64,000 bases of DNA, from positions 22,973 through 86,972 of the forward strand of contig JBGFSC010000005.1 in NCBI GenBank assembly GCA_041694815.1. Direction: 5' to 3'. The translations under genes and the position numbers were made by a program. Under the pieces are notes generated by a model. It saw only the letters and a list, made by a program, of their open reading frames with translations, did no database searches and was not told where the DNA came from. The DNA comes from Elusimicrobiota bacterium (GTDB lineage: Bacteria; Elusimicrobiota; Elusimicrobia; UBA1565; JACRDR01). Below, piece by piece: positions 39,258 through 58,146 of this stretch (position 1 is its first letter; the number at the start of each line of letters is the position of its first letter).

Positions 39258-39527
39258 ATGGCAAGAAAACTCGCTCAAAATGAGACGTATTCCGTCCAAC
39301 CATCGACGCAGGATATGCGCGAGGCTCCGGGAGCGATGCCCTCGCCGACGCCGGGGCGCCCGGGAGCGCCCGGGCAGACGACGCAGCCCTATGGAGGCCC
39401 CGGGGACGCGGCCGCCGCCCCTCAAGCCACCCGCGGCTGGGGCGTGATCCTTTTTGTCGTCGCCGTCGTCGCCCTGATCCTTCTTTCCTTCAGGCGCAAG
39501 CGGCGCACGCCTCCTCCTGGCGCCTAA
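39258..39527 (+). CDS. Small single-pass membrane protein
   Basis: AGGAGG RBS, Pro-rich N-terminus, C-terminal TM followed by RRKRR. Confidence 0.65.
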   Translation: MARKLAQNETYSVQPSTQDMREAPGAMPSPTPGRPGAPGQTTQPYGGPGDAAAAPQATRGWGVILFVVAVVALILLSFRRKRRTPPPGA

Positions 39528-42500
39528 AAGGTCAGGGTGAAACCGGTAGCCAGCTGCCGGTTGAGGTATCGCGGGGTCACCGAGTAAAGGACGTCGCAGA
39601 CCCAGGAGAGTCGCTCGAACATGCGCCAGCGCAGCGACGCCTTGGCGGACTGCAGCCAGCGCCCACGGCCCTCTTGCACGCCGTAGCCTCCCGCGTACTG
39701 AAGGGTGGCCCGCAGGGGGCCGCCGCCGCGCTTGAAGGCCAAGACGCCCATGTGCTGCTCTAAGCCCCGCGGCGTGAAGTATTCCCGGTCCCCGTAGCGC
39801 GAGTCCGCATAGAGAAACGAGTATCCGATCGAGAGCCCCCGTACCAGGTTGCGGGCGCCCTGCAGGCGCAGCTCGCGCAGGCGGTTGGAGTCGTTAAACC
39901 GTACCTCGTCATAGCCGGCCGACCCCTCCCACGCGAGCGTGGGGGCCCAGCTCAGCGTGAAGCCGTCCTTGCGGGCCTTGCGTCCCCGGAAGATCGCCGA
40001 GGCGTTCTCCACGTCGTCGATCCCGTCGAAGACGGACAGCCGCAGGGTGGGCGTCAGCGACATCGACAGGCCGACGCCGTAATTGTCGGAGGTCCTTTCC
40101 GTCTTGGCGGGACGCAGCAGCCCGTTGTGGCGCTGCTCGGAGCGGGTCTCGAACTGCCTGCGGGTGTAGGAAAGCTGAACGGCGGTCTTAAGCGTCACCG
40201 GAAGCTGGAGCTGGAATCCCCCCTCCTGCCCGTCGATGCTCGTGGTGCCGTGCTCCGAGTAACGCGAGCGGCCCATCCAACCGGAAAACTGCGCCGCACG
40301 GATGGGGGCTGCCACCCGCACGATCTGCTTGGCGTGGGAGCGGCGGAAATTGTCCGAGAAGCCGACGAAGGCCGGCGTCGCCGAGGGAGCCACCTGCATC
40401 TCGGCCTGCCTGAGGAGCTCTTGATAGCGGGGGGTCTGGGGATCGAGCGAGTGCGCCTCCGCGTAGAGTTTATGCGCGCCGTAAAGATAGCCGGCCTTCT
40501 CCATCGCCACCCCCTTCTCGGCGTAGAGCTCGGCGCAGCGTAGACCCTCCCTTTCGAGGCCTTCGTAAATCTCCAAGGCCTGGGCCGGCCTAGACGCCAT
40601 CACCCACAGGCTCGCCTCGAGCAGTCGCGCCATGACCCAGGGCTCGCTCAACGAGAGCTGTGCTAGCAATTGCTCCTCGCCCATGTCAGCGGGTACTTGG
40701 AAGCGCTTGATGGCATGGGAGGTCGAGCCCGCGGCGTTGAAGCCGGAGGAATCCTGGATGAAGGCCAACGCGAAATGTTTTTGGACCAGCGCCCGGTTGA
40801 GGGACGCGGCCTCGAGCTCGTTGGTCTCGGCGGCCTGTCCGTAATCCCCGTAAGGAAACGCGAAGGCGCACGGGCCCCCGGGGCAGGCCCATTCCCGCGC
40901 CCGGCGGTATTGCTCCTCGAGCCTAGTCCTGAATTCCTCCCTACTTTCCAGGCGGCCGGCCTCGGCCAGCCAGGCGCGGTTGGCCAAGCCGTGCCCGGTA
41001 TGGCTGGAGCTGTCCACCGGGACCGGTTCGCGGCTCGACTGAGCGTGTATTTCCCACCGGCCGGTGCTCCGCCATGCGGCCAATTCCTTGGCGTCCGCGA
41101 GGGAGGGATTGCCTTCCTCCGGCGGCGCGGGGGCGAACATGACCGCCTTAAGCCCCGTCGCCTTCAAGATCGGATCGGCCTGGCGGAACGTCTCGCGTAG
41201 GCCATCGTCGAAGCTCAGCACGAGCGCCTTGTCGGGCAGGCGCCCGCCCTTACTCAGGAATTCCTCCACCTCCGCGACGCCGACGGTACGAAAGCCGGCG
41301 CGCTTGAGGGCCTCCGCGTGTTTCTTGAAATTCTCGGCCCATATCCGCTCGCCGCGGCTGAAAGGCGAAATCCCTTCGTACGCCAAGGCATGGAAGGCAG
41401 GGGGCCTGTCCCGGACCAGGGGGCGGACCAACGCGAAGGCCTCCTCCATCCGTCCGGAATCCGCCAAGATACGAGCCCTCCGGATTTTAAGCAAGGGCGT
41501 CGCCTGCCCCTTCTCCAGGCCGCTGAGGATTTCCAACGCCTCCTGGAATTCCCCCCGCGCCTGAGCCATGCGCGCCGCGGCCAACAAGGGCCGTTCGTTG
41601 TTCGGGTTCCTTTGATGGATGAATTCATACGTCCTCTGGGCCTCCGACCAGCGCTGGCCCTGCTCCAGGGCCGCGGCCTTGAGGGCATGGCCCTGAAGGG
41701 GGAACGGGTCCAACTCGATCGCCCGGGAAGCCGCCATCAATGCCTTCGCCGACCGTCCAGAACCCAGGGAGACCTTGGCCAGGCGCAGCCACGATGACCG
41801 GGAATAAGGGCCGAATTCGGCCAATCGCCCGAGCCAATAATGGCCGTCGTTAAAATCCTTTCGGAATATGGAATCCTCGATGAGGCGCTCGATGGCGTCG
41901 GCGCTGACGCCGGCGCTGGAAGCGAGCAATTTCCACTCCGAAACCGCTTCGTCGAAACCCCCAAGCGAATAAAGAAGGGAGGCGCGGCGCTTGCGATACC
42001 CCACCGTTGGTTGGAGCTTTACGAGACGCTCGAACAGTTCTAGGGCCGATTCGCGATCCCCCAGCTGCTCCGAGAAATCGGCCAGCGCGAACAGTACCGC
42101 GGGGTCTTCCCTATGGCGGCTTTCCAATCGTTTGAGCAGGGCGATGGATTGCTGTTTCCGCTTCAGGTAGAACATCGCCTTCGCCGCGACGAGCGACGCC
42201 TCGCGATCGTTCGGCGCCAAGCGCAGCGCGCGGCGCGAGGAGGCCGCCGCCGCACCGTAACGCCCCTCCCCCAGCTCCAAATTTCCCTGCAGCACGAGGT
42301 AAGAGTGGTTTCCAGGATGCAGCGCCGACAGGCGCGAAGCCAGCGTCAATGCCTCCACAAGTTCCCCCCTGGCCCAATGGGCCCAGCAGAGGCTCAACAT
42401 AGCCGACGTATCGCTGGATCGCTCGACCAACAGGCGCCACTGGCCGATGGCGGCCTCGATTTGCCCGTGATTGTAGAGGGCCTGCGCGCGGAGCCGGCGA

Positions 42501-43594
42501 AGGCGACCATTTTCCGGGTCGAGGCGCAGCAATTCGTCGTATTGCTCCAGCGCGGCCTCATAGAAACCCATTTGCTGGAGCAGGTCGGCCGCGCCGAAAC
42601 GGGAGGCCCTGCCGGGATTGGCCCGCAGGAACTCGCGCAGAAAATTCGTCGCCTCCAGAGAGCGCTTAGCGCCGAAAAGGGTCCTGGCTCGAAGGAGCGC
42701 CGCGTCGAGGTCGTTGGGAGAAAGCGCCAAGGCGCGCGCCGAGAGCTCCAAGGCGCGCTCGAACTTCTCATGCTCGGTTTCCACGCTGGCGGCCAGGATC
42801 AGCGCGGCCACGTCCCTGGGGTAGCGCTCCGGCAACCGGCGCCAGCGAACGGCGTCCTTGTCGAGCCCCTTGAGCTTAGGGTAGGCCCTGGCCAGGGCCC
42901 GCATGCTCTCCGGCTCTGGCGGGTCCCGCCGTACCCACTGCCGCCAAACCTTGAGCGCCTCCTCCCCGCGGCCGAGCTGGTAGAGCACATCCGCGCGACG
43001 CCGGGCGAAGCGGGGGTTGTCTGGCGAACGCCTCACCAGGCGGTCGTAATAGCTCAAGGAGCGCTCGAAATGCCCCAACATATCGAGCAGCTCGGCCATT
43101 TGAGACAGCACCGCCGCATCCCGCGGGTGCGAACGCGAGAAGGGCTCGAGCACCCGCAGCGCCTCCTCGCCGCGCCCTGATCCCGCGAGCGCCCTCGCCA
43201 GCAATACGGCGCCGCGCGCGTCGCCGGGAGCCAGGCGCAGCGCCTCCCGAGCCATGGCGACCGCTTCCTCGAAACGCCCGCTATCGATTTCCAGGCTGGA
43301 AAGGCCGCGCGCGAAGGCCGGATTTTGGGGGTCTAGGGCCATCAAGGTGCGCCAACACTTGCGGGCGCGGTCGTACTCCTGCAGATGGGCGAACGCCCAG
43401 GCCAGGTTCATCAAGGCGTCCGAGGAGCCGGGATTAGCGGCGAGTTCGGCCTCGAAGGATAGGGTCGCCTCACGATAGCGGTTCTGCGACATCAGTTCCA
43501 GCCCTCGCTTGAGGGGTTCCGTTCGAGTGGGGTCCGAGGCCGCGGCTTCGACCGCCGTCAGGAATAGGCATGCGAAAAAAACGGCGTTTCTCAT
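39524..43594 (-). CDS. TPR + CE4/NodB-like + TPR + probable beta-barrel polysaccharide export protein (PgaA/BcsC-analogous)
   Basis: Signal peptide at MRNAVFF, many TPR repeats, LSFDDG and FAFPYG motifs, amphipathic beta strands ending in terminal F. Confidence 0.78.
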   Translation of the reverse strand: MRNAVFFACLFLTAVEAAASDPTRTEPLKRGLELMSQNRYREATLSFEAELAANPGSSDALMNLAWAFAHLQEYDRARKCWRTLMALDPQNPAFARGLSSLEIDSGRFEEAVAMAREALRLAPGDARGAVLLARALAGSGRGEEALRVLEPFSRSHPRDAAVLSQMAELLDMLGHFERSLSYYDRLVRRSPDNPRFARRRADVLYQLGRGEEALKVWRQWVRRDPPEPESMRALARAYPKLKGLDKDAVRWRRLPERYPRDVAALILAASVETEHEKFERALELSARALALSPNDLDAALLRARTLFGAKRSLEATNFLREFLRANPGRASRFGAADLLQQMGFYEAALEQYDELLRLDPENGRLRRLRAQALYNHGQIEAAIGQWRLLVERSSDTSAMLSLCWAHWARGELVEALTLASRLSALHPGNHSYLVLQGNLELGEGRYGAAAASSRRALRLAPNDREASLVAAKAMFYLKRKQQSIALLKRLESRHREDPAVLFALADFSEQLGDRESALELFERLVKLQPTVGYRKRRASLLYSLGGFDEAVSEWKLLASSAGVSADAIERLIEDSIFRKDFNDGHYWLGRLAEFGPYSRSSWLRLAKVSLGSGRSAKALMAASRAIELDPFPLQGHALKAAALEQGQRWSEAQRTYEFIHQRNPNNERPLLAAARMAQARGEFQEALEILSGLEKGQATPLLKIRRARILADSGRMEEAFALVRPLVRDRPPAFHALAYEGISPFSRGERIWAENFKKHAEALKRAGFRTVGVAEVEEFLSKGGRLPDKALVLSFDDGLRETFRQADPILKATGLKAVMFAPAPPEEGNPSLADAKELAAWRSTGRWEIHAQSSREPVPVDSSSHTGHGLANRAWLAEAGRLESREEFRTRLEEQYRRAREWACPGGPCAFAFPYGDYGQAAETNELEAASLNRALVQKHFALAFIQDSSGFNAAGSTSHAIKRFQVPADMGEEQLLAQLSLSEPWVMARLLEASLWVMASRPAQALEIYEGLEREGLRCAELYAEKGVAMEKAGYLYGAHKLYAEAHSLDPQTPRYQELLRQAEMQVAPSATPAFVGFSDNFRRSHAKQIVRVAAPIRAAQFSGWMGRSRYSEHGTTSIDGQEGGFQLQLPVTLKTAVQLSYTRRQFETRSEQRHNGLLRPAKTERTSDNYGVGLSMSLTPTLRLSVFDGIDDVENASAIFRGRKARKDGFTLSWAPTLAWEGSAGYDEVRFNDSNRLRELRLQGARNLVRGLSIGYSFLYADSRYGDREYFTPRGLEQHMGVLAFKRGGGPLRATLQYAGGYGVQEGRGRWLQSAKASLRWRMFERLSWVCDVLYSVTPRYLNRQLATGFTLTF

Positions 43595-45375
43595 GGATGT
43601 CCTCCCCGATCGCCGGCCTCGCTCAATCGGAGCCACTCGAACTCCCCTCCGCCCTCGGGCACGAGGACGCCGTCGATGAGCTTGCGCAAGCCGGAGAAGC
43701 CGGAGGGATCCGGGTGCGCGACCCACAGCTTCCGACGCCTGAACCCCGGCTCGCTCCGCAGGGCCGACACGGCCCCGCGGATGTCCTCCGGACGCGCGCC
43801 TGCTCCCACCCGCAGCAGCAGGCCCTTGCCGCCTAGCGCGTCGGCTTGCCGCCATAGGGCCTGGATGAAATGACGGCGTGAGGACTCCTTCATCCGGCGG
43901 ATCACGCTTGGGTCTTCCACGTAGAGGCCGGCGACGAGGTCGCAGCGATAAAAGCCGGCGATCGCCTTGAGCAGCTCCTGCTGCTCGCCCTGCACATCGA
44001 GCAGGCCTTGCCGGTCCACCCGGATCCATTGAGGTGCCAGGGCGCGGAGCTCGGAAGCGCGGCTGCGGATCTCCTGAATGCCCGCCCTCGGAGAAAAGGA
44101 AAGCCAGCGGACCGGCAAGGGAGCCGCCCGCACCGAGCTCAGAATGGCGCCGGCGCTTCCCTTGTCGGGGTCGTAAACACCGAAGGAGACGCGCCCCTCG
44201 GCGACTCCCGAAGGGACCCATCGCGGCTTGGCGAAAAGCAAGCGCCCGTTGAGCGAAGCGATCGCCCACTCACCCTTGAGGACGAGGCGCAGTCGTGCTG
44301 GAAAATCGTGGGGCGTCACGGGAGCCTTCGCCAAGGTGACGGGCTTGCGCCCCTTGCCCTCCAACTGCTGGAGCCTCCAGTGCCCTTCCGAGGCGCCCAG
44401 GCGAAGATAGCTTTGGCCCGGGATTTCCCTGGCATACATCCAAGCCGCGCGTTTGAAGCTTTTGAGGGTGTATTCGACGACCATATCACTCCAGGTCTCG
44501 GTGCCTCGCAGCGCCAGGGACGCCCCTGTCTGCCGCGGAGTCGGCAAAATGGCCAGGCGCCGCTTAGCGGAAATGATCCCCCATTCGACTGTCCAGTCCA
44601 TCCGCAAGCGTTCAGCCTGGAAGGAATCCTCGAAAGCCCTCTTGCGCGGCTCGAGGGCGAAAAGGGCCAACAACACGTCCGCCGCGCTGTCCGTAGGCCG
44701 GACGCGGAGCAGGCGCAGCCCCGCCGGGCTCTGCAGCCGATCGTTGTAGCCGGTCCTCGCCGGCAAGAAGCGCAATTCGGAACCGGCACCGCCTCCTTCC
44801 AGCGCGGAACCGGCATCGTCCACACGCGTCCCGAAATCCCAAGCCCCCCCTCGGCGCAATTGCCGGACCGCATGGGGAGAAAGGGCGCGCCGGCGGTCCT
44901 CCCTTCTCAGATTTTTCTGCTGGAAGGCGGCCGCGCGCATCCTTCGTTTCTTGAGGACCTTCTCGGCCCAATGGATGCTTCGCGGGTGATCCCGGTCGAA
45001 GGCGATTAGGATCGACTTGGCGGGTAACGGACGGCCCGCCCGGTAAAAATCTCGAACATCCGAGAATCCGATCGTGGAATAGCCTACCCGGTCGAGCCCG
45101 TCGATGATCCTCGTGAACTCCTCCGGAGGGAATGCGCCCTCGCGGCGGTCGACGGCTGGCATCAGCACGCCTATGAAATGCCTCGCCTCGCCGCGAGCGC
45201 GCGCGGCCCTCTGCGCCTGCAGGCCGCGCCTCCTAAAATAGGCGCTTCCCTCGATCAACCATATTCCCGTCAGGGCGAAGGCGGCCAACAGCGCCGCCCA
45301 GGAGGCCGCATAGTTCGGAAGACGCGCGGCCCTCGCGGGGAGCGGCAGCCTTCCGGCGGAAGCCGTCGTTTCCAT
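43591..45375 (-). CDS. Membrane-anchored multidomain carbohydrate-processing protein (degenerate CE4 + beta-sandwich + GH18-like remnant)
   Basis: One TM, GYSTIGFSDV..F..GRPLPAKSILIAFD PgaB-like segment; ATG overlaps the GT2 stop (TGATG); later domains tentative. Confidence 0.6.
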   Translation of the reverse strand: METTASAGRLPLPARAARLPNYAASWAALLAAFALTGIWLIEGSAYFRRRGLQAQRAARARGEARHFIGVLMPAVDRREGAFPPEEFTRIIDGLDRVGYSTIGFSDVRDFYRAGRPLPAKSILIAFDRDHPRSIHWAEKVLKKRRMRAAAFQQKNLRREDRRRALSPHAVRQLRRGGAWDFGTRVDDAGSALEGGGAGSELRFLPARTGYNDRLQSPAGLRLLRVRPTDSAADVLLALFALEPRKRAFEDSFQAERLRMDWTVEWGIISAKRRLAILPTPRQTGASLALRGTETWSDMVVEYTLKSFKRAAWMYAREIPGQSYLRLGASEGHWRLQQLEGKGRKPVTLAKAPVTPHDFPARLRLVLKGEWAIASLNGRLLFAKPRWVPSGVAEGRVSFGVYDPDKGSAGAILSSVRAAPLPVRWLSFSPRAGIQEIRSRASELRALAPQWIRVDRQGLLDVQGEQQELLKAIAGFYRCDLVAGLYVEDPSVIRRMKESSRRHFIQALWRQADALGGKGLLLRVGAGARPEDIRGAVSALRSEPGFRRRKLWVAHPDPSGFSGLRKLIDGVLVPEGGGEFEWLRLSEAGDRGGHP

Positions 45376-47012
45376 CAGCGGGTCCCCCAATGGTTTTTCC
45401 GCATCGTCAAGAAGGCGTAGTAGGTCTGCGGCCCCATCAGCGCGCCCTGAACGGCCATCATAAGGACACCCAACAGCCAATTCGGGCTCGTCGGGCTTTT
45501 CCACAGGAAATAAAAACATTGGGATAGGCCCAAGATCACGAAACCTCCGATGTAGTAGCTCAGCTCCGCCGTTTGTCCGCCCCAAATACCACCCAAGAGG
45601 GTCTTATACGCGATCCAAGGAGAGGCGGTGCTGCACAAGGCGGCCGCGTAGAAAGAAAGCGCGCCTAGGGGATTTTTTCGGCAGACGAAGCGCCCGGCGA
45701 TCAGGGTCTCCCGCAGCCAGGACTTCTTCCAGCGCACCTGTTGGCGCATGTAATGCGACCAGGTGGCCGGGACCAGAGTCGTCGAGACGGCCGTCTCGTT
45801 GTATATCACGCGGTAATTGCGCAGGATGAAGTTGGTGAGGCTCCGATCGTCGCCGAAGGTGGCCTGCGCCCCCAAAAATCGCTGCCCCAGCCAAGGATCC
45901 AATATCGGCATCAAATAACTTCTCCGGTACGCGGAAAGGCAACCGGGACAACAGGTCACGCAGCTAAATACGCTTTCGGACGCCTTCATCAGCTTGTAGG
46001 AGACAAGGTAGCGGAGTTCCTGCATCCGGGTGAGCGTGTTCTTATCCGCGTTCTCGACATCCGTGTGTCCCGACACCGCTCCCAGCGTCGGATCCTCGAA
46101 GCCGCAGACGATTCTCCGGAAGGCCGTCGGATAGACGAAGGTGTCGGAATCGAGGAAGACGATGATTTCCCCGGAAGCGGCGCGCACGCCGGTCGCCATG
46201 GCATGCCGCTTGCCCGAGGAAGGCAGGTTATAGACTTTCAAGTTGGGAAAACGCTGCTGCAGGGCCTTGAGGATGGCTGGGGTGGCGTCGGTGGAGCCGT
46301 CGTTGACGACGATGATCTCCCTTTTATCGTCCGGATACTGGGCGCGGAAGCAGCTTTCTACAGTCCGCGCGATGAAATGCTCCTCGTTCTTGACGGAGAT
46401 AACGACGCTGATCGATGGCTCATAGCCGCTCATCTTCGGCGCGCGGTAGAGGCAAGACAACAAGAAGCGCGATAGATAGAAGGCGCCCAAGATGAGGCTG
46501 TAGGTGTAGACTCCGGGGGCGTACCAAAAAAACTGGAGATTCCCCCATTTGAGATAGGCCATACAGGCGATAAGCAGCATCAGCGCGACTCCGGCTTGGC
46601 GACGCCGATGATATACGGCCCGGCGGATAAGGCTGGGCAGCGACCTTTCCCATCGGACGATGAGAACATAACGGTCGGTCATCGAGGGGTCGCGTTGCTC
46701 CGTGGGTGAGATATCGATCGGCCTCACCTGCGACACGATGCCGGCGAATTCACAGCGTAGGCCGACCGGGGCCGAGCGCACCGATTCGGGGAGATTAAAC
46801 TGCACGACGACCCTCTGACCGCGGCGGAGCGCGACCTTCGAGCGCAAGCAAATGCCCTCCTGCGTATAGTCCGTGGCGGTGGCATGGAGAATCTGGTGCT
46901 CCTGGCCTCGCTCCGAAGAGAAGATGCTAGCCGGGAACCATTCACGGAACCTGGGCTGGCAACGGCGGTCATGATTCCCGCGATATCGCTCGCAGATGGC
47001 TTCGTCGTCCAT
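45375..47012 (-). CDS. PilZ-fused processive GT2 synthase of hyaluronan synthase/NodC type
   Basis: RRCQPR...DYTQEG PilZ-like motifs; DGSTD, GKRHA, DSDT, CCPGCLSAYR, GDDRSLTN, QQVRWKKSW; GGAG RBS before ATG 47012. Confidence 0.85.
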   Translation of the reverse strand: MDDEAICERYRGNHDRRCQPRFREWFPASIFSSERGQEHQILHATATDYTQEGICLRSKVALRRGQRVVVQFNLPESVRSAPVGLRCEFAGIVSQVRPIDISPTEQRDPSMTDRYVLIVRWERSLPSLIRRAVYHRRRQAGVALMLLIACMAYLKWGNLQFFWYAPGVYTYSLILGAFYLSRFLLSCLYRAPKMSGYEPSISVVISVKNEEHFIARTVESCFRAQYPDDKREIIVVNDGSTDATPAILKALQQRFPNLKVYNLPSSGKRHAMATGVRAASGEIIVFLDSDTFVYPTAFRRIVCGFEDPTLGAVSGHTDVENADKNTLTRMQELRYLVSYKLMKASESVFSCVTCCPGCLSAYRRSYLMPILDPWLGQRFLGAQATFGDDRSLTNFILRNYRVIYNETAVSTTLVPATWSHYMRQQVRWKKSWLRETLIAGRFVCRKNPLGALSFYAAALCSTASPWIAYKTLLGGIWGGQTAELSYYIGGFVILGLSQCFYFLWKSPTSPNWLLGVLMMAVQGALMGPQTYYAFLTMRKNHWGTR

Positions 47013-47092
47013 CGTTTCTCCGCCGTAGTATAAACGCGCGGCCAGGGGCTCCCTATAAAGGCCTTGTAAACAGATTCCCATCGGACGTTGAA

Positions 47093-49092: not shown

Positions 49093-51543
49093 CTATTTGA
49101 GCACGGCAATACGCCCGCGCGAGTTTCCCCCCCGCGAATCCGTGATCACATAGAGATAAAAGCCGGAAGCGACGGCCTGGCCCGCGTCGTTGGTCAAGTC
49201 CCAGGAAGCTTTGCCGTTGACGGCCCTCAGGCTTTTGAGCCATTTTCCCGACAGCGTGAATATCTTGACCGTGCTGCCTTCCCCTAAAAGATCGAACACC
49301 ACAGGCACCCCCCCGTGCCGATCGGATTTCCAAGGATTGGGGAATACCTGCATGCCGCCGGGCGAAATGGCCGGAGCCGGCGCGCGGATCGCCAAGGCAA
49401 CCCAAGGGGAGCGTCCGCCTCCGGGAGGCGGGTTAAAAACCGTGATCTGGGCCGTGCCAGTGGAGCGCACGTCCTCGGACAGGATCACCGCTTCGAGCCG
49501 ATTGGGACTCAGCACGCGGGTCTGGCGGTCGGCCCCGTTGAATTGCAAGGTCGCTCCAGCGGCGAAGCCCTCGCCAATCGCCTGCAAGGAAAAGAGTCCC
49601 TGTCCCGCGGTCACGAAGCCGGGGCTCAAGGAGAACACCCGGGGGATGGGATTAGAGGGCTGCGGAGCCGGCGCGGGCCCGCCGATCCCCACGCCGACGC
49701 CCCTCGAGGGCGCCTCCTGGTTTCCGCTGTCGTCGACGGCCCGGCTCATCAAAACGCGCCCGCCGCTGCCGGAAGGCTTCCATTCGTAGCTCCATGCCTC
49801 CCTTCCCTTAGCCGGGCGCCAGCTGGCGCCGCCGTCCACCGAGACTTCCACGGCGCCGACGATGCCACCGCCCGAGTCCGCGGCGGTGCCGGCGATGAGC
49901 ACCGCGGTCCCGGTGGAAAATACGGTCCCTTCGGACGGGGAAAGAATGCCGGAAGAAGGCGCTTGCGAGTCAGCGGAAGCGAAGGCCGCCACTAGATTCG
50001 CCTGGGGAGATCCCGGCTGGGAATCCATATCCGCCAGGAGATTGCGGGTGGCCTGCTGCAAATCCCGGTAGGCGGGCTGCGGCGGATTCGGGGCGTCATG
50101 ATGGCTGTCCAAGCCCCAGGTCCATTGCATGGTGCCGGCGCCGAAAACCCTGGCCCCGCTCGGGCTGCGGTAAAGGGTAAGGGTATGGGTCGCCGTCCCG
50201 GGAATATACGTGTAGCCCGGGCCCAATTGCCGCCGGTCCACCGCGTAACTGCTCGAGGAAAGGTGCATCAAACCGGCGGGCCTGTAGCCATTGTCGATGT
50301 CCTCGTCCCATTCGTAGCCGAGGATCTGCTCGTAGACCGACTCCGTCCCCGGTGTCAGGCTCGCCACGGAGGTGTTGCGCCAGAAACGATGCCGCGCGAA
50401 ATCGGACGGAACGATCAGGGCGTCGTTGCGAAACGGCCCGACGGTGTATTCCTGCCCCGAGAGGGAGTTGGGGTGCTTGCCGCCGTCGGAAGGCGGGCTG
50501 AAACGATGATCCCACCAATAGCCGGTCCAGGAAGGAGGGCTCATCGGGTCCCGGGTATTGTTGACGCTTTCCTTATAACAGACCATCGTGCGATGCGGGG
50601 TTTTGGTCGCGTCGATGCTGGGCTCCCAGCGGATCTTCCAATATATTTCATTGGAGCTAAAAAAGCCCAGATGCACCCCCGCGTCGCGCGCGGCCTCGAC
50701 GGCCTTCCGCTGGGGCCCGGACCAATATTCGTCGTGCCCCACGGATAGGAATACCTTATGGTTGCGGATCAGCTCCCCGCGCCGATCGCTGTCGACGCCG
50801 GTGAAATAGCTCACGTCGTAGCCGTTGGCCTCCAGCCACCGGATCATCGGATACTCGTGGCCCAGCACCCAAGAGGAGGAATAATTCCGCGTCGTGAAAG
50901 GCCGGTTGTAGCTCACCTTGTAAGCGCGGTTAAACGGCATGCTCGGCGCGACGTAGAGGCTGCCGCCTCCATAGCGGTTATAGGCCTGCCAGGTGGTGTC
51001 CGATGTCTGGAACAGTATATCGCTGCGTCCCGCGTCATCTCGAACCACGAAAAAGATATGGCTGGCTCCCCCGGTGTCCGCGCGCGTCAGCTTGGCGAAA
51101 TAGACGCCCGACACGGCCTCGGCCGGCACGCTCCATGACGCCGAGACGGCCCAATTGCCGCAATCGACCAAGCCGGTCGAAGAGTCGCTCAAGCAGGCCG
51201 GCTGGATCTGGGGTAGAACCGCCGAAGGGGAAATCGAGGCAACCTTGCGCGCGCCGGCTCCACGATAAAATCCTAATCGATAGATATCGATCCGGTACTG
51301 GGAGGCGTCCGTATGGATCTTGAAGTCGACGGTCTCGCCTCGATTGACGCTGATTTCGGTGGAAAAACCGACGATGCTGGGATCGCCGGCCTTGGGAATG
51401 TCCCATTCCGTCGAAAGGTTACCCGTTTTGCAGTTTTCCGCGACTACGGCGTTGGCGGGATTGGCGCAGGTGTCCTGGGCAAAGGCACCCCTAACTGCGA
51501 GCGAGGCCGCGCTCAAAAAAAAGGCATAAATCGTTCCACGCAT
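49093..51543 (-). CDS. Exported protein: N,N-dimethylformamidase-beta-like domain + Ig/IPT domains + T9SS-like CTD
   Basis: ENCKTG, TWQAYN.YGG, SVGHDEYWS, GYEWD, GAGTMQW; VEVSVDGG Ig domain; CTD nearly colinear with that of 47093..48112. Confidence 0.8.
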   Translation of the reverse strand: MRGTIYAFFLSAASLAVRGAFAQDTCANPANAVVAENCKTGNLSTEWDIPKAGDPSIVGFSTEISVNRGETVDFKIHTDASQYRIDIYRLGFYRGAGARKVASISPSAVLPQIQPACLSDSSTGLVDCGNWAVSASWSVPAEAVSGVYFAKLTRADTGGASHIFFVVRDDAGRSDILFQTSDTTWQAYNRYGGGSLYVAPSMPFNRAYKVSYNRPFTTRNYSSSWVLGHEYPMIRWLEANGYDVSYFTGVDSDRRGELIRNHKVFLSVGHDEYWSGPQRKAVEAARDAGVHLGFFSSNEIYWKIRWEPSIDATKTPHRTMVCYKESVNNTRDPMSPPSWTGYWWDHRFSPPSDGGKHPNSLSGQEYTVGPFRNDALIVPSDFARHRFWRNTSVASLTPGTESVYEQILGYEWDEDIDNGYRPAGLMHLSSSSYAVDRRQLGPGYTYIPGTATHTLTLYRSPSGARVFGAGTMQWTWGLDSHHDAPNPPQPAYRDLQQATRNLLADMDSQPGSPQANLVAAFASADSQAPSSGILSPSEGTVFSTGTAVLIAGTAADSGGGIVGAVEVSVDGGASWRPAKGREAWSYEWKPSGSGGRVLMSRAVDDSGNQEAPSRGVGVGIGGPAPAPQPSNPIPRVFSLSPGFVTAGQGLFSLQAIGEGFAAGATLQFNGADRQTRVLSPNRLEAVILSEDVRSTGTAQITVFNPPPGGGRSPWVALAIRAPAPAISPGGMQVFPNPWKSDRHGGVPVVFDLLGEGSTVKIFTLSGKWLKSLRAVNGKASWDLTNDAGQAVASGFYLYVITDSRGGNSRGRIAVLK

Positions 51544-51605
51544 CGCCCGCGAGTATATAAACGCCCGGCGGGGGTAGCGATGAACGGAAAGTAAATTGTT
51601 TGCCC

Positions 51606-52772
51606 TTATTTCACGACGGCGAAGCTCTGGTACAGGAAGGAATTGTCCTTTCGGCGGATCTTCGCTATGTAAACCCCCGAGTCGACCAGACGCCCGGAGG
51701 AGTCGCGGCAATCCCATCGCAGCGCCGCGCCGCCTCCCGTGCGCGTCAGCACGGCGATGCGCCGGCCCCCGGCGTCGAAAACTTCCACCGATTCGGCCCC
51801 TGGGCCGAAGAGGGCCGAATCGTTGATGCCGTCGGCCAATGCGGGGCTCAGGAAGCGCTGCTTGGAGCGGCTCTCCTCGCCAAGCGGCGGAGCCGGAGAC
51901 GGGGGAGCCGGGCTCGGGACGGGCTCGGGCGACGGCGCCGGGATCGGTGGCTCGGGGGCCGGAATCGGGCTCTGGGGCGGGTCCGGCGCCGGGACCGGCG
52001 CGGGGCGCGGAGATTCATCCAAGGCGCTTACCGTGAAGCTCCGGAACTTCAAATCGCAGTTGTCGCCGCGGATGCCAACCTTTCCTGGCACACGAATCGG
52101 CGCGCCTCCCATCGAGCCGTCGTCGACCGCGGAGGCCAGGAGGCGGCCGTCAATGAAAAGCTTGAGGCCCACGGAGCCGTCCGCGTTGTTGCGCGCCGTC
52201 GCCTCGATCCGCTGCCAGGCCTTATGCGGAACGCCGTAGGAAACGACGGGGCTTAAGGTGAAGTAACTCCCTCCGTTCGAGGGGCCGCCGGGGATCTTCT
52301 TCTTGATCATGACGGTGCCGTCCCGGCGGTTCAGAGTGACATAATAGGTGTAATATTCGCTCTGATAGCGCAAAAAGAGATGGACGCCGTCGTAATCCCG
52401 GGGGGGCGTCGCCGGGGTGGAGCTCAGGCCGTCGTTGAGCAATTCCAGCCTCAGCGCGATATCCTTGAAGTCGCCGCGCTTCGTCGTCAGTCGAAAAACC
52501 GCCGAGTGCGTGCCGTTGGTGGAGCGCGCGTTCGGCTGGACGGAATCGGGAACCCCGCTCCAACCGCGACCCCGGTCGGCGAAGAGGGAGCCGCTGCTCA
52601 TTTCCCAAATATCGGATTTGACGGCGTTCGGGTCGTTGGGGAACCAATAGGCGAACTCGTTGGTCACCAGGCCGTCCGGCAGATTCTCGAACGAGTAGCT
52701 GGCCAGGGTCTCGGCGGCCAGAGGCATCCGCGACACAACGAACAAAACGCACGCGAGCCATGCGTGTCTCAT
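51606..52772 (-). CDS. Exported beta-sandwich (lectin/ConA-like) protein with Pro-rich linker and FlgD-Ig/CTD-like end
   Basis: Signal peptide at MRHAWL, GKVGIRGDN, PAP/PEP linker, VFDAGG...WDC...SGVYIAKI. Confidence 0.72.
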   Translation of the reverse strand: MRHAWLACVLFVVSRMPLAAETLASYSFENLPDGLVTNEFAYWFPNDPNAVKSDIWEMSSGSLFADRGRGWSGVPDSVQPNARSTNGTHSAVFRLTTKRGDFKDIALRLELLNDGLSSTPATPPRDYDGVHLFLRYQSEYYTYYVTLNRRDGTVMIKKKIPGGPSNGGSYFTLSPVVSYGVPHKAWQRIEATARNNADGSVGLKLFIDGRLLASAVDDGSMGGAPIRVPGKVGIRGDNCDLKFRSFTVSALDESPRPAPVPAPDPPQSPIPAPEPPIPAPSPEPVPSPAPPSPAPPLGEESRSKQRFLSPALADGINDSALFGPGAESVEVFDAGGRRIAVLTRTGGGAALRWDCRDSSGRLVDSGVYIAKIRRKDNSFLYQSFAVVK

Positions 52773-53686
52773 CCCCCCACCCCGCCGAATAACAGCCGGA
52801 CCCCGATCAGATGCGAGCCGACGCTGCCGCCCAGGAGGTTGCGGTTGAGCACCAAGGCGTAGTCGACGCCCATGCGCCCCTTCTGTATGCCGAATCCGCT
52901 CGTGATCTCGTCGGGATTGACCCCGATCCGGAAAAGCACCTCGGCGTCCCACACGCCGGAAATACGCTTTTGCAATCCCACCGTCGGCAGAACTCGGCGG
53001 GCCCCTCCGGGGTAGGTGGCGCCGCGCACCGCCAGCTCGGTCGTGACCGTCAGCACACGGCCCCCTACGGGAAACGCGACCGCCGCGCGCCATTGCCTGG
53101 CGACACGGTCCTCGGAGGCGAGCCCGACATCCGGACGGTTGAAATTCTTGACCGAGAACCCGACGTCGAAACCGGGGGCGATCGGGTACACGGCCCCGAA
53201 GTCCAACCCGAGCGCCGAACGGGAAGTCCCACCGCGGAAAACCGGATCCTCCGAATCCTCGCCCTGCGGGGAAAAGGAATGCTGGAGCCAATTGGCGGAG
53301 ACGCCGAGCTGTACGCCCAGGGGCAGCTTCCGGGCGACGGTGAAGGCCATGGTCCGCTCTTCCATGAGCCCGGAAGCCCGGAAACTGCCGTAGCCTAGGC
53401 CGAAGCTCCCCCAACGGGTCGGGACGCCGGCCGCGATAAGATTCGTCCCGATCTCCCCGATGCCGTCTAAACCCGCATACAAGCCGCTGCGCATGAAATA
53501 GCATTCCGGGCGGGGCAATCTCGCGATGCCAGCCGGGTTCAAAAATATCCCGGCGGAGTCGTCGGCGGCGGCCACGGAAATGTTTCCCAGGGCGGCCGAG
53601 CGCGGGCTCAATATCGGCTCCTGAAAGGCCGCCTGCGAGGGCGCCGCGCTCCCCAGAAAAAATAAAAACGCCGCGAGGCGTCTCAT
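52769..53686 (-). CDS. PorV/PorP-like outer-membrane beta-barrel
   Basis: SPRSAALG...FLNPAGIA hatch motif, NFNRPD, VDYA, C-terminal strand. Confidence 0.75.
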   Translation of the reverse strand: MRRLAAFLFFLGSAAPSQAAFQEPILSPRSAALGNISVAAADDSAGIFLNPAGIARLPRPECYFMRSGLYAGLDGIGEIGTNLIAAGVPTRWGSFGLGYGSFRASGLMEERTMAFTVARKLPLGVQLGVSANWLQHSFSPQGEDSEDPVFRGGTSRSALGLDFGAVYPIAPGFDVGFSVKNFNRPDVGLASEDRVARQWRAAVAFPVGGRVLTVTTELAVRGATYPGGARRVLPTVGLQKRISGVWDAEVLFRIGVNPDEITSGFGIQKGRMGVDYALVLNRNLLGGSVGSHLIGVRLLFGGVGG

Positions 53687-53820: not shown

Positions 53821-54831
53821 ATGTCGAATACTCGAATGGCCGCGCGTCGCTGGGGAATTGTCTTGGCAGGGGGAGAGGGCTCCCGCCTGCGCCCCTGGAC
53901 CATGCGTCGCCTCGGCTTCCACCGACCCAAGCAGTACTGCGCCTTCCTCGGCGAGCGGAGCATGCTGGAACACACGATCGACCGCACCGCCGGGCTCATC
54001 CTACCCGAGCGCTTGGTGACCATCATCGGGCGCGGCCATTGGGCGCATCTGGAGGAGCCTCGCCGCCAATCGGTCCCCGGCATGATCATCGAACAGCCCG
54101 GGGAGAGGGACACCGGGCCGGGGGTCTTCTTGCCGCTGACCTACGTCATGGCGCTCGAGCCGGAGGCCACCGTGGCCGTTTTCCCATCGGACCATTTCAT
54201 TTTTCCGAAGACTGAGTTCCAGCGCCTCGTCGAGCAAGCCTTCGATCTCGCCGAGTTCCTGCAGGACCGAATCGTCCTACTAGGGGCGGCGGCCGACCGC
54301 CCCGAGCCCGAATACGGATGGATCGAGCCAGGAAGAGCGCTGGAGGAGGGTCCGCTCCGCTCCGCCTGCGCCGTCGAGCGATTCGTTGAGAAGCCGGATC
54401 TGCGCACCGCCGACTCCCTTTTCCGACGCGGCTGCCTATGGAATACCCTGATCATGGTTTTTAAAGGTAAGGCGCTCTGGTCCATGGGCCAGGCCCTCTT
54501 CCCCAAGATGCTCCATCGCTTCGAAAGCCTTCGCCTGGCCCTCATCGGAGGAGGCGGCGCGCCGGAAGCGGCGGCGGTCTACGAGGGGATGGAGCGGGTC
54601 AATTTCTCGAGCGGACTGCTCGCGCGCTTGCCCGCCAAGACGGTGGTCGTGCCGATGCACGGAGTTCTTTGGAACGACTGGGGCCGCCCGGAACGCATTT
54701 CGGAGACCCTGGCGGCCATGGGAAGCGTCTTGGCGACCGAACCGGCCGACGCCGATGGTCTCGTTCATCCCCTCAATAATAACAAGTTGCCGCCGCTATA
54801 CACCCCCGAGCCCACCCTGCGCATACAATAG
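53821..54831 (+). CDS. Sugar-phosphate nucleotidyltransferase (mannose-1-phosphate guanylyltransferase-like)
   Basis: LAGGEGSRL, PKQ, RDTGP, PSDH, YGWI, FVEKP, WNDWG. Confidence 0.85.
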   Translation: MSNTRMAARRWGIVLAGGEGSRLRPWTMRRLGFHRPKQYCAFLGERSMLEHTIDRTAGLILPERLVTIIGRGHWAHLEEPRRQSVPGMIIEQPGERDTGPGVFLPLTYVMALEPEATVAVFPSDHFIFPKTEFQRLVEQAFDLAEFLQDRIVLLGAAADRPEPEYGWIEPGRALEEGPLRSACAVERFVEKPDLRTADSLFRRGCLWNTLIMVFKGKALWSMGQALFPKMLHRFESLRLALIGGGGAPEAAAVYEGMERVNFSSGLLARLPAKTVVVPMHGVLWNDWGRPERISETLAAMGSVLATEPADADGLVHPLNNNKLPPLYTPEPTLRIQ

Positions 54832-54906
54832 CCCCTAGGCTTGTGAGACAAGCCTAACGCCCGCGCGGGACGCGACGTTTCACGCGCGTGTGCGGCGGAG
54901 GGGTCT

Positions 54907-56742
54907 ATGTGCGGAATCGTCGGATACATCGGCCAGCGCCAGGTAGTGCCCATCTTGCTGGGAGGCCTCAAAAGCCTCGCCTACCGCGGCTACGACTCGG
55001 CTGGGCTGGCCGTGCTCTCGGAAACCGGGCTGCATGTGCGGCGGGCCGTCGGTAAGATCGACAACCTGAGCAGCCTGCTCACCCTCCGGCCACTGCCAGG
55101 CCGCGTGGGCATCGGCCATACGCGCTGGGCCACCCATGGGCGCCCCTCGGAAGAAAATACGCACCCGCATCTCGATTGCTCCTCCAAGATCGCGGTCATC
55201 CATAACGGGATCATCGAGAACCACGGACCCCTCAAGGACAGGCTCCTCACCTCGGGGCATGCCTTCCGATCGGAGACCGACACCGAGGTGATTTCCCACC
55301 TCGTGGAGGAAAAGCTGGCCTCCGTCGGGTCGCTGCGCGAGGCGCTGCGGCTCGCCCTGCGGGAGCTCGAGGGGGCCTACGCCATCGCGGTGCTCTGTTC
55401 CGACTTCCCGGGGGAGCTGCTAGCGGCCAAGACCTCCTCACCCTTGGCTGTCGGGCTCGGCGAGGACGAGGCCTTCCTGGCGTCCGACGTGCCGGCGTTC
55501 CTCGAATATACCCGTGACGTGATATACCTCGACGATGGGGAAATGGCGGCCTTCAGCGTCCGCGAGGCCGAATTTTCCGACATCCGCGGCCACCGCATCC
55601 GGAAAAGCCCCACCCGCGTCTCATGGAACCGCGGGATGGCCGAGAAGGCCGGTTACCGCCATTTCATGCTCAAGGAGATCCACGAGCAGCCCCGTGTGAT
55701 CGCCGACACCTTGCGTGGCCGCACCTTGCCGCTTTGCAATGGGATCCTGGAGCGGGAAACCGGGATGGACCGCGGATTCTTGAGCGGGGTATCGTCCGTG
55801 CATCTCGTGGGCTGCGGCACGGCACATCACGCCGCGATGGTCGGCAAGTACCTATTGGAGCGTTTCGCCCGGATCCCGGCCCAGGTCGAGACCGCCTCCG
55901 AATTCCGCTACCGCGAGCCCATGCTCTCGCCTTCGACCCTCGTCATCGCGATCAGCCAGTCCGGCGAGACCGCCGACACCTTGGCCGCCGCGCGCCTGGC
56001 GAGGCAATCCGGCTGCAAGGTGCTCTCGATCTGCAACACCGTGGGCTCCGCCCTGACCCGCTGCGCGGACTTCAATTTCTACACTCATTGCGGGCCCGAA
56101 TGCGGCGTCGCCTCGACGAAGGCCTTCGTGGGCCAGCTGGTCGCCCTGAGCGCGCTGACCCTGCATCTCGGCGCGAGCCTGGGCCGGCTGAGCGAGCAGG
56201 AGGGGCTGGCGTGGGTCTCGGAGCTATCGCGCCTGCCGGAGCTCGTGGAGGCGGCCTTGAAGCTCGAGCCGGAGGTCCAGGATATCGCCCGCCACTACTG
56301 CAGGGCCGAGCACTTCATCTACATCGGGCGCACCTTCAACTACCCTACCGCATTAGAGGGGGCCCTCAAACTCAAGGAGATCTCCTACATCCACGCCGAG
56401 GGATACGCCGCGGGTGAAATGAAGCACGGGCCCATCGCCTTAATCGACATGGCCATGCCGGTGGTCGCCATCGCCACCCACTCCAAGGTCTTCGACAAGG
56501 TGCTTTCGAACATCGAGGAGGCCAAGGCCCGACGGGGCCAGATCATCGCCCTATGCACGCAGGGCGAGAAGCGGCTCTACGGCAAGGCGGACCGCATGCT
56601 CGAGCTGCCCAAGGCGGGAGAGTTCCTGTCGCCGATCGTCAACGTAATCCCCCTGCAACTGCTGGCCTACCACATCGCCGACCTGCGCGGCTGCGACGTC
56701 GACTGCCCGCGCAACCTGGCCAAGAGCGTGACGGTCGAATAG
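54907..56742 (+). CDS. glmS: Glutamine-fructose-6-phosphate transaminase
   Basis: MCGIVG, GHTRWATHG, SQSGETADT, PRNLAKSVTVE. Confidence 0.96.
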   Translation: MCGIVGYIGQRQVVPILLGGLKSLAYRGYDSAGLAVLSETGLHVRRAVGKIDNLSSLLTLRPLPGRVGIGHTRWATHGRPSEENTHPHLDCSSKIAVIHNGIIENHGPLKDRLLTSGHAFRSETDTEVISHLVEEKLASVGSLREALRLALRELEGAYAIAVLCSDFPGELLAAKTSSPLAVGLGEDEAFLASDVPAFLEYTRDVIYLDDGEMAAFSVREAEFSDIRGHRIRKSPTRVSWNRGMAEKAGYRHFMLKEIHEQPRVIADTLRGRTLPLCNGILERETGMDRGFLSGVSSVHLVGCGTAHHAAMVGKYLLERFARIPAQVETASEFRYREPMLSPSTLVIAISQSGETADTLAAARLARQSGCKVLSICNTVGSALTRCADFNFYTHCGPECGVASTKAFVGQLVALSALTLHLGASLGRLSEQEGLAWVSELSRLPELVEAALKLEPEVQDIARHYCRAEHFIYIGRTFNYPTALEGALKLKEISYIHAEGYAAGEMKHGPIALIDMAMPVVAIATHSKVFDKVLSNIEEAKARRGQIIALCTQGEKRLYGKADRMLELPKAGEFLSPIVNVIPLQLLAYHIADLRGCDVDCPRNLAKSVTVE

Positions 56743-58146
56743 CTACGCCCGCACGATCTTCTGGCGCTCTTCCTTGACCGCCCCGCAGGCGTTGCGGGTG
56801 TCGACGACCAGGGAGGCGTGTTTGACGATCCAGGAGTAGTCGTAATCGCTGTGGTTGGTCGCGATCAAGACCGCGTCCTTGCCGGAGATTTCCTCCTCGG
56901 TCAAGGCGACGGATTTCACCTTGAGGTGGCGGTAATGGCGCATCGTCGGGAAAACCGGGATGTACGGGTCATGGTAGACGACGCGAGCCCCCTTCTCCCC
57001 CAGGAGCTCCAGGAGGCGGAAGGACGGAGACTCGCGCGGGTCGTCGATGTCCTTCTTGTAGGCCAGGCCCAGCAGCAGGATCTTCGCGGATTCCAGGGAT
57101 TGTCCGCGCGCGCGCAAGGCCTGCTCCAATTTACCTACGACGTAATAGGGCATCTGCGTGTTGAGCTCCCCCGCCAGATCGATGAAGCGCGTCGAGAACT
57201 GGTACTCGCGCGCTTTCCATGAAAGGTAAAAAGGGTCGATGGGGATGCAGTGGCCCCCCAACCCCGGCCCGGGATGAAATGCCTGGAAACCGAAGGGCTT
57301 GGTCGAGGCGGCGTCGATGACCTCCCAGACGTCGATGCCCATACGGTCGAAACACATCTTGAGCTCGTTGACGAGGGCGATGTTAACGCAGCGGTAGATA
57401 TTCTCCAATAACTTGGCCGCTTCCGCGGATTCCCATGAGGAGACCTCCACGACGCGGACGACGGCGGAACGGTAGAGCTCGGCGGCCACCCGCCGGGAAT
57501 GGTCATCGGCGGCCCCCACCACTTTCGGTATGGTCTCATTGTTGAACTGCTTGTTGCCGGGATCCTCCCGCTCCGGGGAGAAGGCAAGAAAGAAGTCCTT
57601 GCCGCAGCGAAGCCCCTTCTTTTGGAGCTCCGGCTTCATGACCTCTCTCGTGGTGCCGGGATAGGTGGTGCTCTCGAGGATGACTAGCTGCCCCGCCCTC
57701 TGATTCTCAGCGATGGATTTCGCGGTGGCTCGGATGAAGGAGAGGTCGGGCCGGCCGTCGGCCGTCAGCGGGGTCGGTACGCAGATGATGATGGCGTCCA
57801 TCGCTCCCAGGCGCTTGAAATCGGAAGTGGCCTCCATGCGCCGGCTACGCCTCAATTCGGCCACGATGGAAGAGGGGACCGAGCCGATGTAGGACTCCCC
57901 CCGATTGAGCTTCTTGACCTTGGCCTCGTCCACGTCGAAGCCGGTGACGGAATAGCCCCGGGAGGTGAACAGGCGCACGAGCGGAAGGCCGACGTAGCCG
58001 AGCCCGATCACGCCGACGCGGGCCTGCCGGGTGTGGATTTTCTGCAACAGCCGGTCAACCGCCGAACTCGCCTCGCGGGCGTTGCCGTTGCCGTTGCCGC
58101 TACCGCCGTTTCCGAGCGACTTGGGACGCAATAGGGTCTTATTCAT
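56743..58146 (-). CDS. Nucleotide-sugar dehydrogenase, UDP-N-acetylhexosamine (WbpA/WecC/TviB) type
   Basis: GLGYVG, CVPTP, ESTTYPG, SPER, KLLEN, GGHCIPIDP, D.RESP. Confidence 0.9.
   Translation of the reverse strand: MNKTLLRPKSLGNGGSGNGNGNAREASSAVDRLLQKIHTRQARVGVIGLGYVGLPLVRLFTSRGYSVTGFDVDEAKVKKLNRGESYIGSVPSSIVAELRRSRRMEATSDFKRLGAMDAIIICVPTPLTADGRPDLSFIRATAKSIAENQRAGQLVILESTTYPGTTREVMKPELQKKGLRCGKDFFLAFSPEREDPGNKQFNNETIPKVVGAADDHSRRVAAELYRSAVVRVVEVSSWESAEAAKLLENIYRCVNIALVNELKMCFDRMGIDVWEVIDAASTKPFGFQAFHPGPGLGGHCIPIDPFYLSWKAREYQFSTRFIDLAGELNTQMPYYVVGKLEQALRARGQSLESAKILLLGLAYKKDIDDPRESPSFRLLELLGEKGARVVYHDPYIPVFPTMRHYRHLKVKSVALTEEEISGKDAVLIATNHSDYDYSWIVKHASLVVDTRNACGAVKEERQKIVRA

Follow-up and report, generated by a model that had tools for sequence, protein, structure and literature searches.

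Organization of the locus

The DNA analysed here (the window) is a stretch of 64,000 nucleotides from an uncultured Elusimicrobiota bacterium, corresponding to contig C12:22973–86972 of a 2.77 Mb host genome that is 97.8% complete. It contains eight co-oriented minus-strand open reading frames (ORFs), with three putative precursor genes beside them, that form a candidate exopolysaccharide system. The eight genes are two linked modules: a three-gene core, comprising a synthase that resembles hyaluronan synthase (HAS), a membrane-anchored protein and an outer-membrane exporter, and pairs of barrel and cargo genes like those of type IX secretion. The core is very probably a synthase-dependent exopolysaccharide machine. 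Genomes, contigs of the host and fetched loci are denoted below by G, C and L numbers, respectively. The features are as follows (aa, amino acids; TPR, tetratricopeptide repeat).

52769–53686, minus strand: PorP/SprF-like outer-membrane barrel, 305 aa, signal peptide; PF11751 22.5 bits (cut-off 22.3), TIGR03519 27 bits (cut-off 90.6)
51606–52772, minus strand: cargo 1, 388 aa; signal peptide, putative lectin-like domain, proline linker, type-B-like C-terminal domain
49093–51543, minus strand: cargo 2, 816 aa; DMFA2_C (PF20254, 354 bits), Big_7, choice-of-anchor Z repeat (NF058597, 75.7 bits), type A C-terminal domain (TIGR04183, 26.9 bits, cut-off 23)
48109–49029, minus strand: PorV/PorQ-family barrel, 306 aa; NF033709 144 bits (cut-off 90)
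47093–48112, minus strand: cargo 3, 339 aa; acidic Ser/Thr/Pro/Glu repeats (nine repeat motifs), type A C-terminal domain (TIGR04183, 24.8 bits, cut-off 23)
45375–47096, minus strand: PilZ-fused HAS-like processive GT2 synthase, 545–573 aa, C-terminal WGTR; best PDB match Xenopus HAS1
43591–45375, minus strand: membrane-anchored pseudo-deacetylase, 594 aa; membrane helix 23–41, CE4 fold, CBM66-like jelly roll, partial GH18-like barrel
39524–43594, minus strand: exporter, 1356 aa; signal peptide, TPRs, PgaB-type CE4 deacetylase, TPRs, PgaA-type β-barrel; TPR and PF01522 matches
53821–54831, plus strand: sugar-phosphate nucleotidyltransferase, mannose-1-phosphate guanylyltransferase-like; PF00483, TIGR01479 104 bits (cut-off 373)
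54907–56742, plus strand: glmS (glucosamine-6-phosphate synthase), second copy; TIGR01135 816 bits
56743–58146, minus strand: UDP-N-acetylhexosamine (UDP-HexNAc) 6-dehydrogenase-type enzyme; best PDB matches UDP-N-acetylmannosamine (UDP-ManNAc) and UDP-N-acetylgalactosamine (UDP-GalNAc) dehydrogenases

All eight minus-strand ORFs were found in the ORF list of the window, from 53686 to 39524, in the order described in an earlier note on this DNA, with junction gaps of −4, 62, 63, −4, −4, −1 and −4 bp. Since five of the seven junctions overlap and the other two gaps are just 62–63 bp, the arrangement points to a single operon. The nucleotidyltransferase and glmS are divergent from this run and the dehydrogenase converges on glmS; the precursor genes named in the earlier note therefore adjoin the eight genes but stand outside the run, two of them on the plus strand. 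No Rfam match was obtained at the gathering score for positions 36000–64000 of the window, and promoter and terminator counts in the region were at chance level.

The synthase

The best solved relatives of the GT2, in sequence and in fold, are class I hyaluronan synthases, as the earlier note had proposed. The best PDB sequence match was Xenopus HAS1 (E = 1.8e-33). In Foldseek, the top 13 matches to the model (predicted local distance difference test score 87.7) were all HAS, with HAS1 and the Chlorella-virus HAS as the best folds. According to this model, from which the membrane topology was taken (a hydropathy scan missed the helices), the protein would be a single module with an intrinsic channel, as in class I HAS. 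The start codon is ambiguous (47096, 47081 or 47012), the database call giving 545 aa. The roles of residues in the HAS acceptor site and channel, including the contact of R287 with the uronic acid, were taken from PMC11750622. In an alignment with Xenopus HAS1, the window GT2 keeps K218, D242, R287, Y288, C307, GDDR, QxxRW (R381/W382), S385 and the WGT gating loop, and departs from HAS at F292 (Tyr) and R296 (Lys).

A quick tree of 50 rows, which held no vertebrate or viral HAS and did not recover the GT2 family as one clade, placed the window GT2 outside the HasA/NodC group (support 98) and apart from PgaC (Shimodaira–Hasegawa-like approximate likelihood-ratio support 99). Named homologues of the GT2 are from Elusimicrobiota, and a scan of the genome contigs with the GT2 alone gave just distant GT2s. 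Separately, a GT2 in another genome (L039:9254–10501, G007) groups with Bacillus HasA (support 96), keeps RY and ERAA and is followed by an O-antigen-ligase-like gene; it is a possible true HasA in Elusimicrobiota.

Through its homologues, the N-terminal domain of the GT2 is assigned as PilZ: PF07238 matched 11 of 14 aligned N-termini, and PilZ was recorded in 15 of the 120 GT2 homologues listed. The corresponding region of the window protein carries RxxxR and DxTxxG motifs and is modelled as a six-stranded domain. When the PilZ profile was compared with the PilZ region of BcsA, an E value of only 1.2 was obtained. The host genome encodes three full-length GGDEF domains, two of them with a confirmed GGEEF motif. 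On these sequence grounds, gating of the synthase by cyclic di-GMP (c-di-GMP) is likely.

The anchored protein and the exporter

The anchored protein was modelled with confidence (score 92) as one membrane helix followed by CE4, CBM66-like and partial GH18-like folds, for which structure comparison gave Z scores of 17.5 (PgaB N-domain), 18.6 (CBM66) and 15.0 (chitinase). The CE4 fold and the membrane anchor agree with the earlier description of a CE4-like anchored protein, but the protein is a pseudo-enzyme; a DD-type catalytic motif was present in just one of 92 aligned homologues, and for this reason it is most likely a non-catalytic guide. A word-index search with this protein returned one homologue, whereas a profile search returned 295 at E = 1e-30 or better.

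A profile of the exporter barrel finds PgaA (PDB entry 4y25; E = 8.9e-6), and PF21197 matched five of 15 aligned exporter barrels, the window barrel not among them; the window exporter also falls below the PgaA equivalog cut-off. The profile of its CE4 domain finds Escherichia coli PgaB (E = 4e-32). The D-D, H-x4-H metal motif is complete in most of the distinct exporters (34 of 38); the window copy is without the second metal histidine, and as judged from this its CE4 domain is probably weak as a deacetylase. In one homologue (P0175) the anchored pseudo-deacetylase and the exporter are fused in one protein. Elsewhere in the host genome, contig C54:88024–90401 (L165) encodes a paralogue of the operon PorV (49%) and, paired with it, a secreted CE4 deacetylase that bears a tag and whose motifs are intact, with homologues beside the synthase in other genomes; it is speculation that this deacetylase could substitute for the weakened domain.

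Distribution of the core

Metagenome neighbourhoods were counted for the 80 best of 551 GT2 matches. The CE4 gene follows the GT2 in 59 of the 64 loci with at least 900 bp downstream, and the exporter barrel is present in 28 of the 29 with at least 7 kb downstream. The GC content of these loci ranges from 35 to 74%, and named homologues of single core genes occur in Omnitrophota, Phycisphaerales, Manganitrophaceae and Binatota. The core is thus strongly conserved and widespread in environmental bacteria, and the co-conservation that the earlier note had put forward as a check was borne out. Within the order of the host, a close synthase was found in 21 of the 100 other genomes, some copies being without an exporter. 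A plasmid of Paenibacillus cellulositrophicus (strain KACC 16577) carries a deacetylase, a dehydrogenase (detected by tblastn in an unannotated gap), the PilZ-GT2, a homologue of the anchored deacetylase and a GH18 gene; no exporter is present, as expected of a monoderm. At two further loci (L030:5921–10773 and L169:4167–10232) a synthase, a tagged CE4 cargo and a PorV gene lie by phosphoketolase genes, with no TPR-barrel exporter in the fetched DNA.

Barrels and cargos

The host genome contains 21 other PorV-family loci, 16 of them adjoining a tagged cargo, and the tag terminates 20 host proteins (18 of which built the profile). Because barrel/cargo pairs occur genome-wide, the adjacency of barrels and core means little by itself, and co-occurrence was therefore tested in each of the other 100 genomes of the order, against the baseline of 21 in 100 for a close synthase. 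An orthologue of the PorP-like barrel occurs in 20 genomes, 18 of which have a close GT2, and a close relative of the PorV-like barrel in seven, all with a close GT2. For two control barrels of the host genome the corresponding counts were 7/36 and 2/20; their cut-offs were chosen after the results had been seen, and one of them (C54:86878) is an imperfect negative, the N-terminal domain of its cargo being found in PorP-linked cargos too. In the 38 genomes of genus g11, the PorP-like barrel and the synthase were found together in eight, singly in two and two, and neither in 26. The exceptions in the order are G387 and G415 (barrel without synthase) and G032, G421 and G428 (synthase without barrel). 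These counts support a real co-occurrence of barrels and synthase, and it is reasonably probable that the barrels are functionally connected with the polymer. Dedicated surface proteins, as the earlier note had them, are only partly upheld: the two barrels co-occur with the synthase, but pairs of this kind occur throughout the genome and a barrel or tag lies upstream in only five of 29 informative metagenome loci.

Cargo 1 gave no Pfam match; homologous C-termini match CHU_C at 19.5–20.7 bits (cut-off 27), and neither cargo 1 nor the PorP-like barrel has a solved relative detectable by phmmer. Among the relatives with the PorP orthologue (neighbourhoods fetched for 19 of 20), a C-terminus of the cargo 1 type follows the barrel in 17 of 19. 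The N-terminal domain of cargo 1 recurs in eight of the 80 metagenome synthase loci, six of them without a barrel or tag in the fetched DNA, and is fused once into the gene after the GT2. Kinship of this domain with the jelly roll of the anchored protein was considered and rejected (profile comparison probability 3%). The PorP-linked cargos of relatives have variable bodies with CBM-like modules (F5/8 type C, sialidase-like CBM, PF06439), and the cargos of operon-type barrels mostly have carbohydrate-binding, deacetylase or GH18 domains, intact CE4 among them. Close relatives of the PorV-like barrel adjoin CE4-deacetylase cargos in G056, G428 and G441. At divergent synthase loci (L104, L105, L117, L123 and G015 C58), a different barrel with an intact CE4 or GH18 cargo lies directly upstream. 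A protein of 13,779 aa with a type-IX-like C-terminal tag is encoded on contig C38:58886–100225 (plus strand) and is followed by a PorV-TPR fusion.

Precursor genes

In searches of the PDB, the dehydrogenase matched UDP-ManNAc/GalNAc dehydrogenases (E = 5e-67 to 2e-55) ahead of UDP-glucose dehydrogenase (6e-39). Synthase-linked dehydrogenases were of the UDP-HexNAc type in 23 of 23 loci and closer to Ugd in none. The dehydrogenase beside Bacillus hasA, used as a control, was of the UDP-glucose type (47.8% versus 28.9%), as was that beside the HasA-like gene of Lactococcus. In many loci the linked dehydrogenase immediately precedes the GT2, as it does in Paenibacillus. Both glmS and the dehydrogenase are second copies, with paralogues on C24 (glmS, 66%) and C19, and glmS, glmU and GH18 genes recur in the islands of relatives. 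The window nucleotidyltransferase resembles not GlmU but a mannose-1-phosphate guanylyltransferase without the isomerase part (TIGR01479, under the cut-off), and lies near the core in G005, G004 and G024.

A GH18 homologue was found in 16 of the 80 metagenome synthase loci. In the host the gene is displaced to contig C25:16407–17384 (L164:8408–9385, minus strand); its orthologues directly follow the exporter in G389, G411 and G008, and occur in four of 100 genomes of the order, all four synthase-positive. The catalytic DxE motif was confirmed in five relatives' copies, in L123 and in the C25 copy.

The linked glmS, the UDP-HexNAc-type dehydrogenases and the glmU of relatives accord with the amino-sugar precursors claimed in the earlier note. 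An N-acetylhexosaminuronic acid in the polymer is modestly favoured by these sequence assignments. As the uronate-contacting arginine is kept and the dehydrogenases are of the HexNAc type, the likeliest product would be an acidic polymer of N-acetylglucosamine (GlcNAc) and N-acetylhexosaminuronic acid. Two further sets of polymer genes were noted. Contig C22:56999–60325 (L166) holds WbqC and a tandem of three PIG-L deacetylase genes, close kin of island genes in other genomes. A second polymer system in five relatives (L022, L024, L026, L167 and L168) comprises two TPR proteins, an NfrB-like GT2 and WecB, with WbqC, PIG-L deacetylase and GlnA-like genes.

Proposed mechanism and alternatives

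We narrowly favour a reading in which the core makes and exports an acidic amino-sugar polymer under c-di-GMP control, while the upstream barrels bring polymer-binding or polymer-modifying proteins to the surface. GlmS and the dehydrogenase, whose enzyme types are evident, would supply UDP-GlcNAc and UDP-N-acetylhexosaminuronic acid. The GT2, with its HAS fold and residues, would polymerize both sugars and thread the chain through its own channel in the manner of class I HAS, the product most likely being alternating GlcNAc and N-acetylglucosaminuronic acid. Predicted binding of c-di-GMP to the PilZ domain would switch production on. The anchored pseudo-deacetylase, having lost its catalytic residues, may act as a non-catalytic periplasmic guide, and the TPR/PgaA-type barrel, by homology, would export the chain. 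The PgaB-type domain of the exporter would partly de-N-acetylate the chain in most relatives, probably weakly in the window, and the GH18 enzyme (encoded on C25 in the host) may trim it. In Elusimicrobiota, as part of a type-IX-like pathway, the co-occurring PorP/PorV-like barrels would present proteins that act on the polymer at the surface. A wider proposal is tentative: a widespread c-di-GMP-gated HAS-like family may make a hyaluronan analogue, with N-acetylhexosaminuronic acid in place of glucuronic acid (GlcA), exported by a fused deacetylase-PgaA porin, and in Elusimicrobiota a motor-less type-IX-like branch may install lectin-like, deacetylase and GH18 proteins, the whole being one coupled matrix system.

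Several observations count against these proposals. Regarding control, a Pfam search of the window GT2's own PilZ region gave no match, and DYDxxG replaces DxSxxG in the PilZ regions of many close relatives. Regarding the product, a dehydrogenase is present in only six of the 29 metagenome loci with at least 5 kb upstream, and the host genome also encodes a UDP-glucose dehydrogenase on contig C19. Regarding the secreted proteins, the DMFA domain of cargo 2 was found in none of the fetched loci and the acidic-repeat cargo 3 had no match in 20 relative loci, so that both look like local additions. The SprA-like ORF of the host (contig C19:8829–14318, L163:3830–9319, plus strand; about 1830 aa, beside lptFG-like genes) gave three partial TIGR04189 matches (best E = 1.5e-15), below the cut-off, and no PDB match by phmmer. 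Regarding the coupling, the genomes compared are kin and may share one transferred island, so the Fisher P values overstate the significance; G387 retains the PorP pair without a synthase and G032 has the core without the pair. The pair has glmS, the dehydrogenase or glmU beside it in 17 of 19 relatives and the core within about 15 kb in eight of 19. An NfrB/WecB polymer system, which the pair could serve, lies directly upstream of the GT2 in G015, G047, G004, G426 and G441.

The last of these points bear on the possibility that the barrel and cargo genes simply ride on a shared amino-sugar island that moves horizontally, or else work for an NfrB/WecB-type polymer, without a functional link to the synthase, the core being as described. 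The tighter association of the PorP pair with precursor genes than with the core, the many PorV-family loci of the host and the few metagenome loci with a barrel or tag upstream fit this view. We nevertheless regard it as unlikely: blastp detected no NfrB or WecB homologue in the host genome, yet the pair is co-oriented with the core; in G024 and G056 the pair is on separate contigs from the core and is still kept; the divergent synthases adjoin a barrel of another type, whose cargo is CE4 or GH18; and in the six metagenome loci that have no barrel or tag, the cargo 1 domain is next to core genes or within them.

If the core instead made a neutral β-1,4-GlcNAc polymer, chitin or chitosan-like, the dehydrogenase would serve lipopolysaccharide or capsule. 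The GH18 and CE4 partners and the scarcity of dehydrogenases in the fetched loci are compatible with such a product, and among NCBIfam families the GT2 matches NodC best (TIGR04242, 152 bits, cut-off 550). NodC, however, has EYW, GEDR and WLSR where the GT2 family has RY, GDDR and WGTR; the R287 that in HAS contacts the uronic acid is kept (PMC11750622); and the dehydrogenase often immediately precedes the GT2. A neutral polymer is accordingly improbable.

Slightly less probable again is true hyaluronan, polymerized from UDP-GlcNAc and UDP-GlcA, as the product; the synthase would then be the first diderm class I HAS to be served by a Pga-type exporter. GlcA is available to the host, since a UDP-glucose dehydrogenase is encoded on C19; the best sequence and fold matches are HAS; and R287, GDDR and WGTR are retained. 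Lysine replaces R296 in 64 of 64 aligned homologues, but the R296K mutant of XlHAS1 still produces short hyaluronan, as reported in PMC11750622. The linked dehydrogenases, of the UDP-HexNAc type in all 23 loci, speak for a product that is probably not hyaluronan, and the GT2 lies outside the HasA/NodC group in a tree that held no vertebrate or viral HAS.

A rearranged pga operon for poly-N-acetylglucosamine is hardly credible despite the PgaA-type barrel, the PgaB-type deacetylase and the variants without pgaD mentioned in PMC7112194, given a TIGR03937 score of 101.4 bits against a cut-off of 422.3, the absence of the PgaC motifs TEDI and WVSPDRG, the separation from PgaC in the tree and the failure to find PgaD (PF13994) in the 97.8% complete host genome with a positive E. 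coli control; with no PgaD and a synthase outside PgaC, the core does not map one-to-one onto pgaABCD, in agreement with the earlier note.

Comparison with known systems

The core would operate in the manner of Pga or alginate secretion, but by the comparisons made here it belongs to none of the Pga, has and nod systems. With PgaABCD (PDB entries 4y25, 3vus and 4f9d) it shares TPRs with a PgaA-type barrel, a PgaB-type CE4 metal motif in most exporters, an inner-membrane GT2 and predicted c-di-GMP control. It differs in that the synthase is HAS-like with a fused N-terminal PilZ domain and has no PgaD partner, that the deacetylase is inserted into the exporter (PgaB is an active CE4 and GH153 in one lipoprotein) and that a further, membrane-anchored pseudo-deacetylase bearing a CBM66-like domain, GH18 in place of GH153 and a linked HexNAc dehydrogenase are present. 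With class I HAS (Xenopus HAS1, 8smm–8smp; Chlorella-virus HAS, 7sp6–7spa; Bacillus HasA) it shares one GT2 with its own channel and the R287/Y288, C307, GDDR, QxxRW, S385 and WGT(R) loop features, whereas the HasB-type UDP-glucose dehydrogenase of bacterial has operons was linked in none of the 23 loci. NodC/NodB systems provide the best NCBIfam match, but the GT2 is without the NodC motifs, and no exporter of this sort accompanies NodC.

The alginate machinery Alg8-Alg44-AlgK-AlgE follows the same logic, combining a PilZ sensor, a GT2, a TPR/porin exporter and a nucleotide-sugar dehydrogenase to give a polyuronate; here the exporter derives from PgaA and the synthase itself carries the PilZ domain. 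No Alg family was among the best 25 family matches listed per protein, and no direct comparison with Alg was made. In BcsA, the PilZ domain is at the C-terminus. Bacterial chitin synthases sit with DUF1501/DUF1800, a different gene set, according to PMC5122149.

Cognate shuttle and cargo gene pairs have been described for type IX secretion (PMC12618676). Compared with the Flavobacterium johnsoniae system, the locus has a PorV/PorQ-family barrel, TIGR04183 tags over the cut-off and a PorP-like barrel paired with a type-B-like tag, but the host is an elusimicrobiote, the PorP-like gene is upstream and not downstream of its cargo, and the pairs are associated with a polysaccharide island. The putative pore, an SprA-like ORF, is short and scores below the cut-off. 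No motor or sortase match was obtained: searches for GldM and GldN were negative with their positive controls likewise silent, GldK and GldL were not searched for, and the PorU match was confined to its C-terminal tag region.

In the literature, no description was found of the synthase-side system or of type IX secretion in Elusimicrobiota; subscription papers, supplements and the operons without pgaD in S4 Fig of PMC7112194 were outside this comparison. The earlier view of an undescribed system is supported by the conserved HAS-type synthase core and has to be qualified in that two core genes out of three derive from Pga (PgaA barrel and PgaB deacetylase). The variant of synthase-dependent secretion is real and, apparently, undescribed.

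Neighbouring genes

Just beyond the 3′ end of the exporter, positions 38566–39102 of the window (plus strand) encode a secreted 178-aa low-complexity protein (Pro/Ala, His-rich, Arg/Glu/Met repeats). On the other side, carbonic anhydrase, SulP transporter and universal stress protein genes form one run (58236–61230, minus strand), probably for bicarbonate uptake. Farther away (29769–32594, minus strand) lie cysteine synthase-like, JAB-domain-like and MoaD-MoeB-rhodanese fusion genes, which from motifs in the translations we take to be a sulfur-carrier pathway.

Significance

If the favoured reading is correct, the core would be a new family among the few synthase-dependent exopolysaccharide systems and would likely make a new glycosaminoglycan-like polymer, testable in the cultured, harmless Paenibacillus. 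The synthase would offer a natural variant for how class I hyaluronan synthases select and alternate sugars, and a model for the gating of a HAS-type synthase by an N-terminal PilZ domain. For the Elusimicrobiota, display of polymer-acting proteins would be the first concrete job for their type-IX-like pathway.

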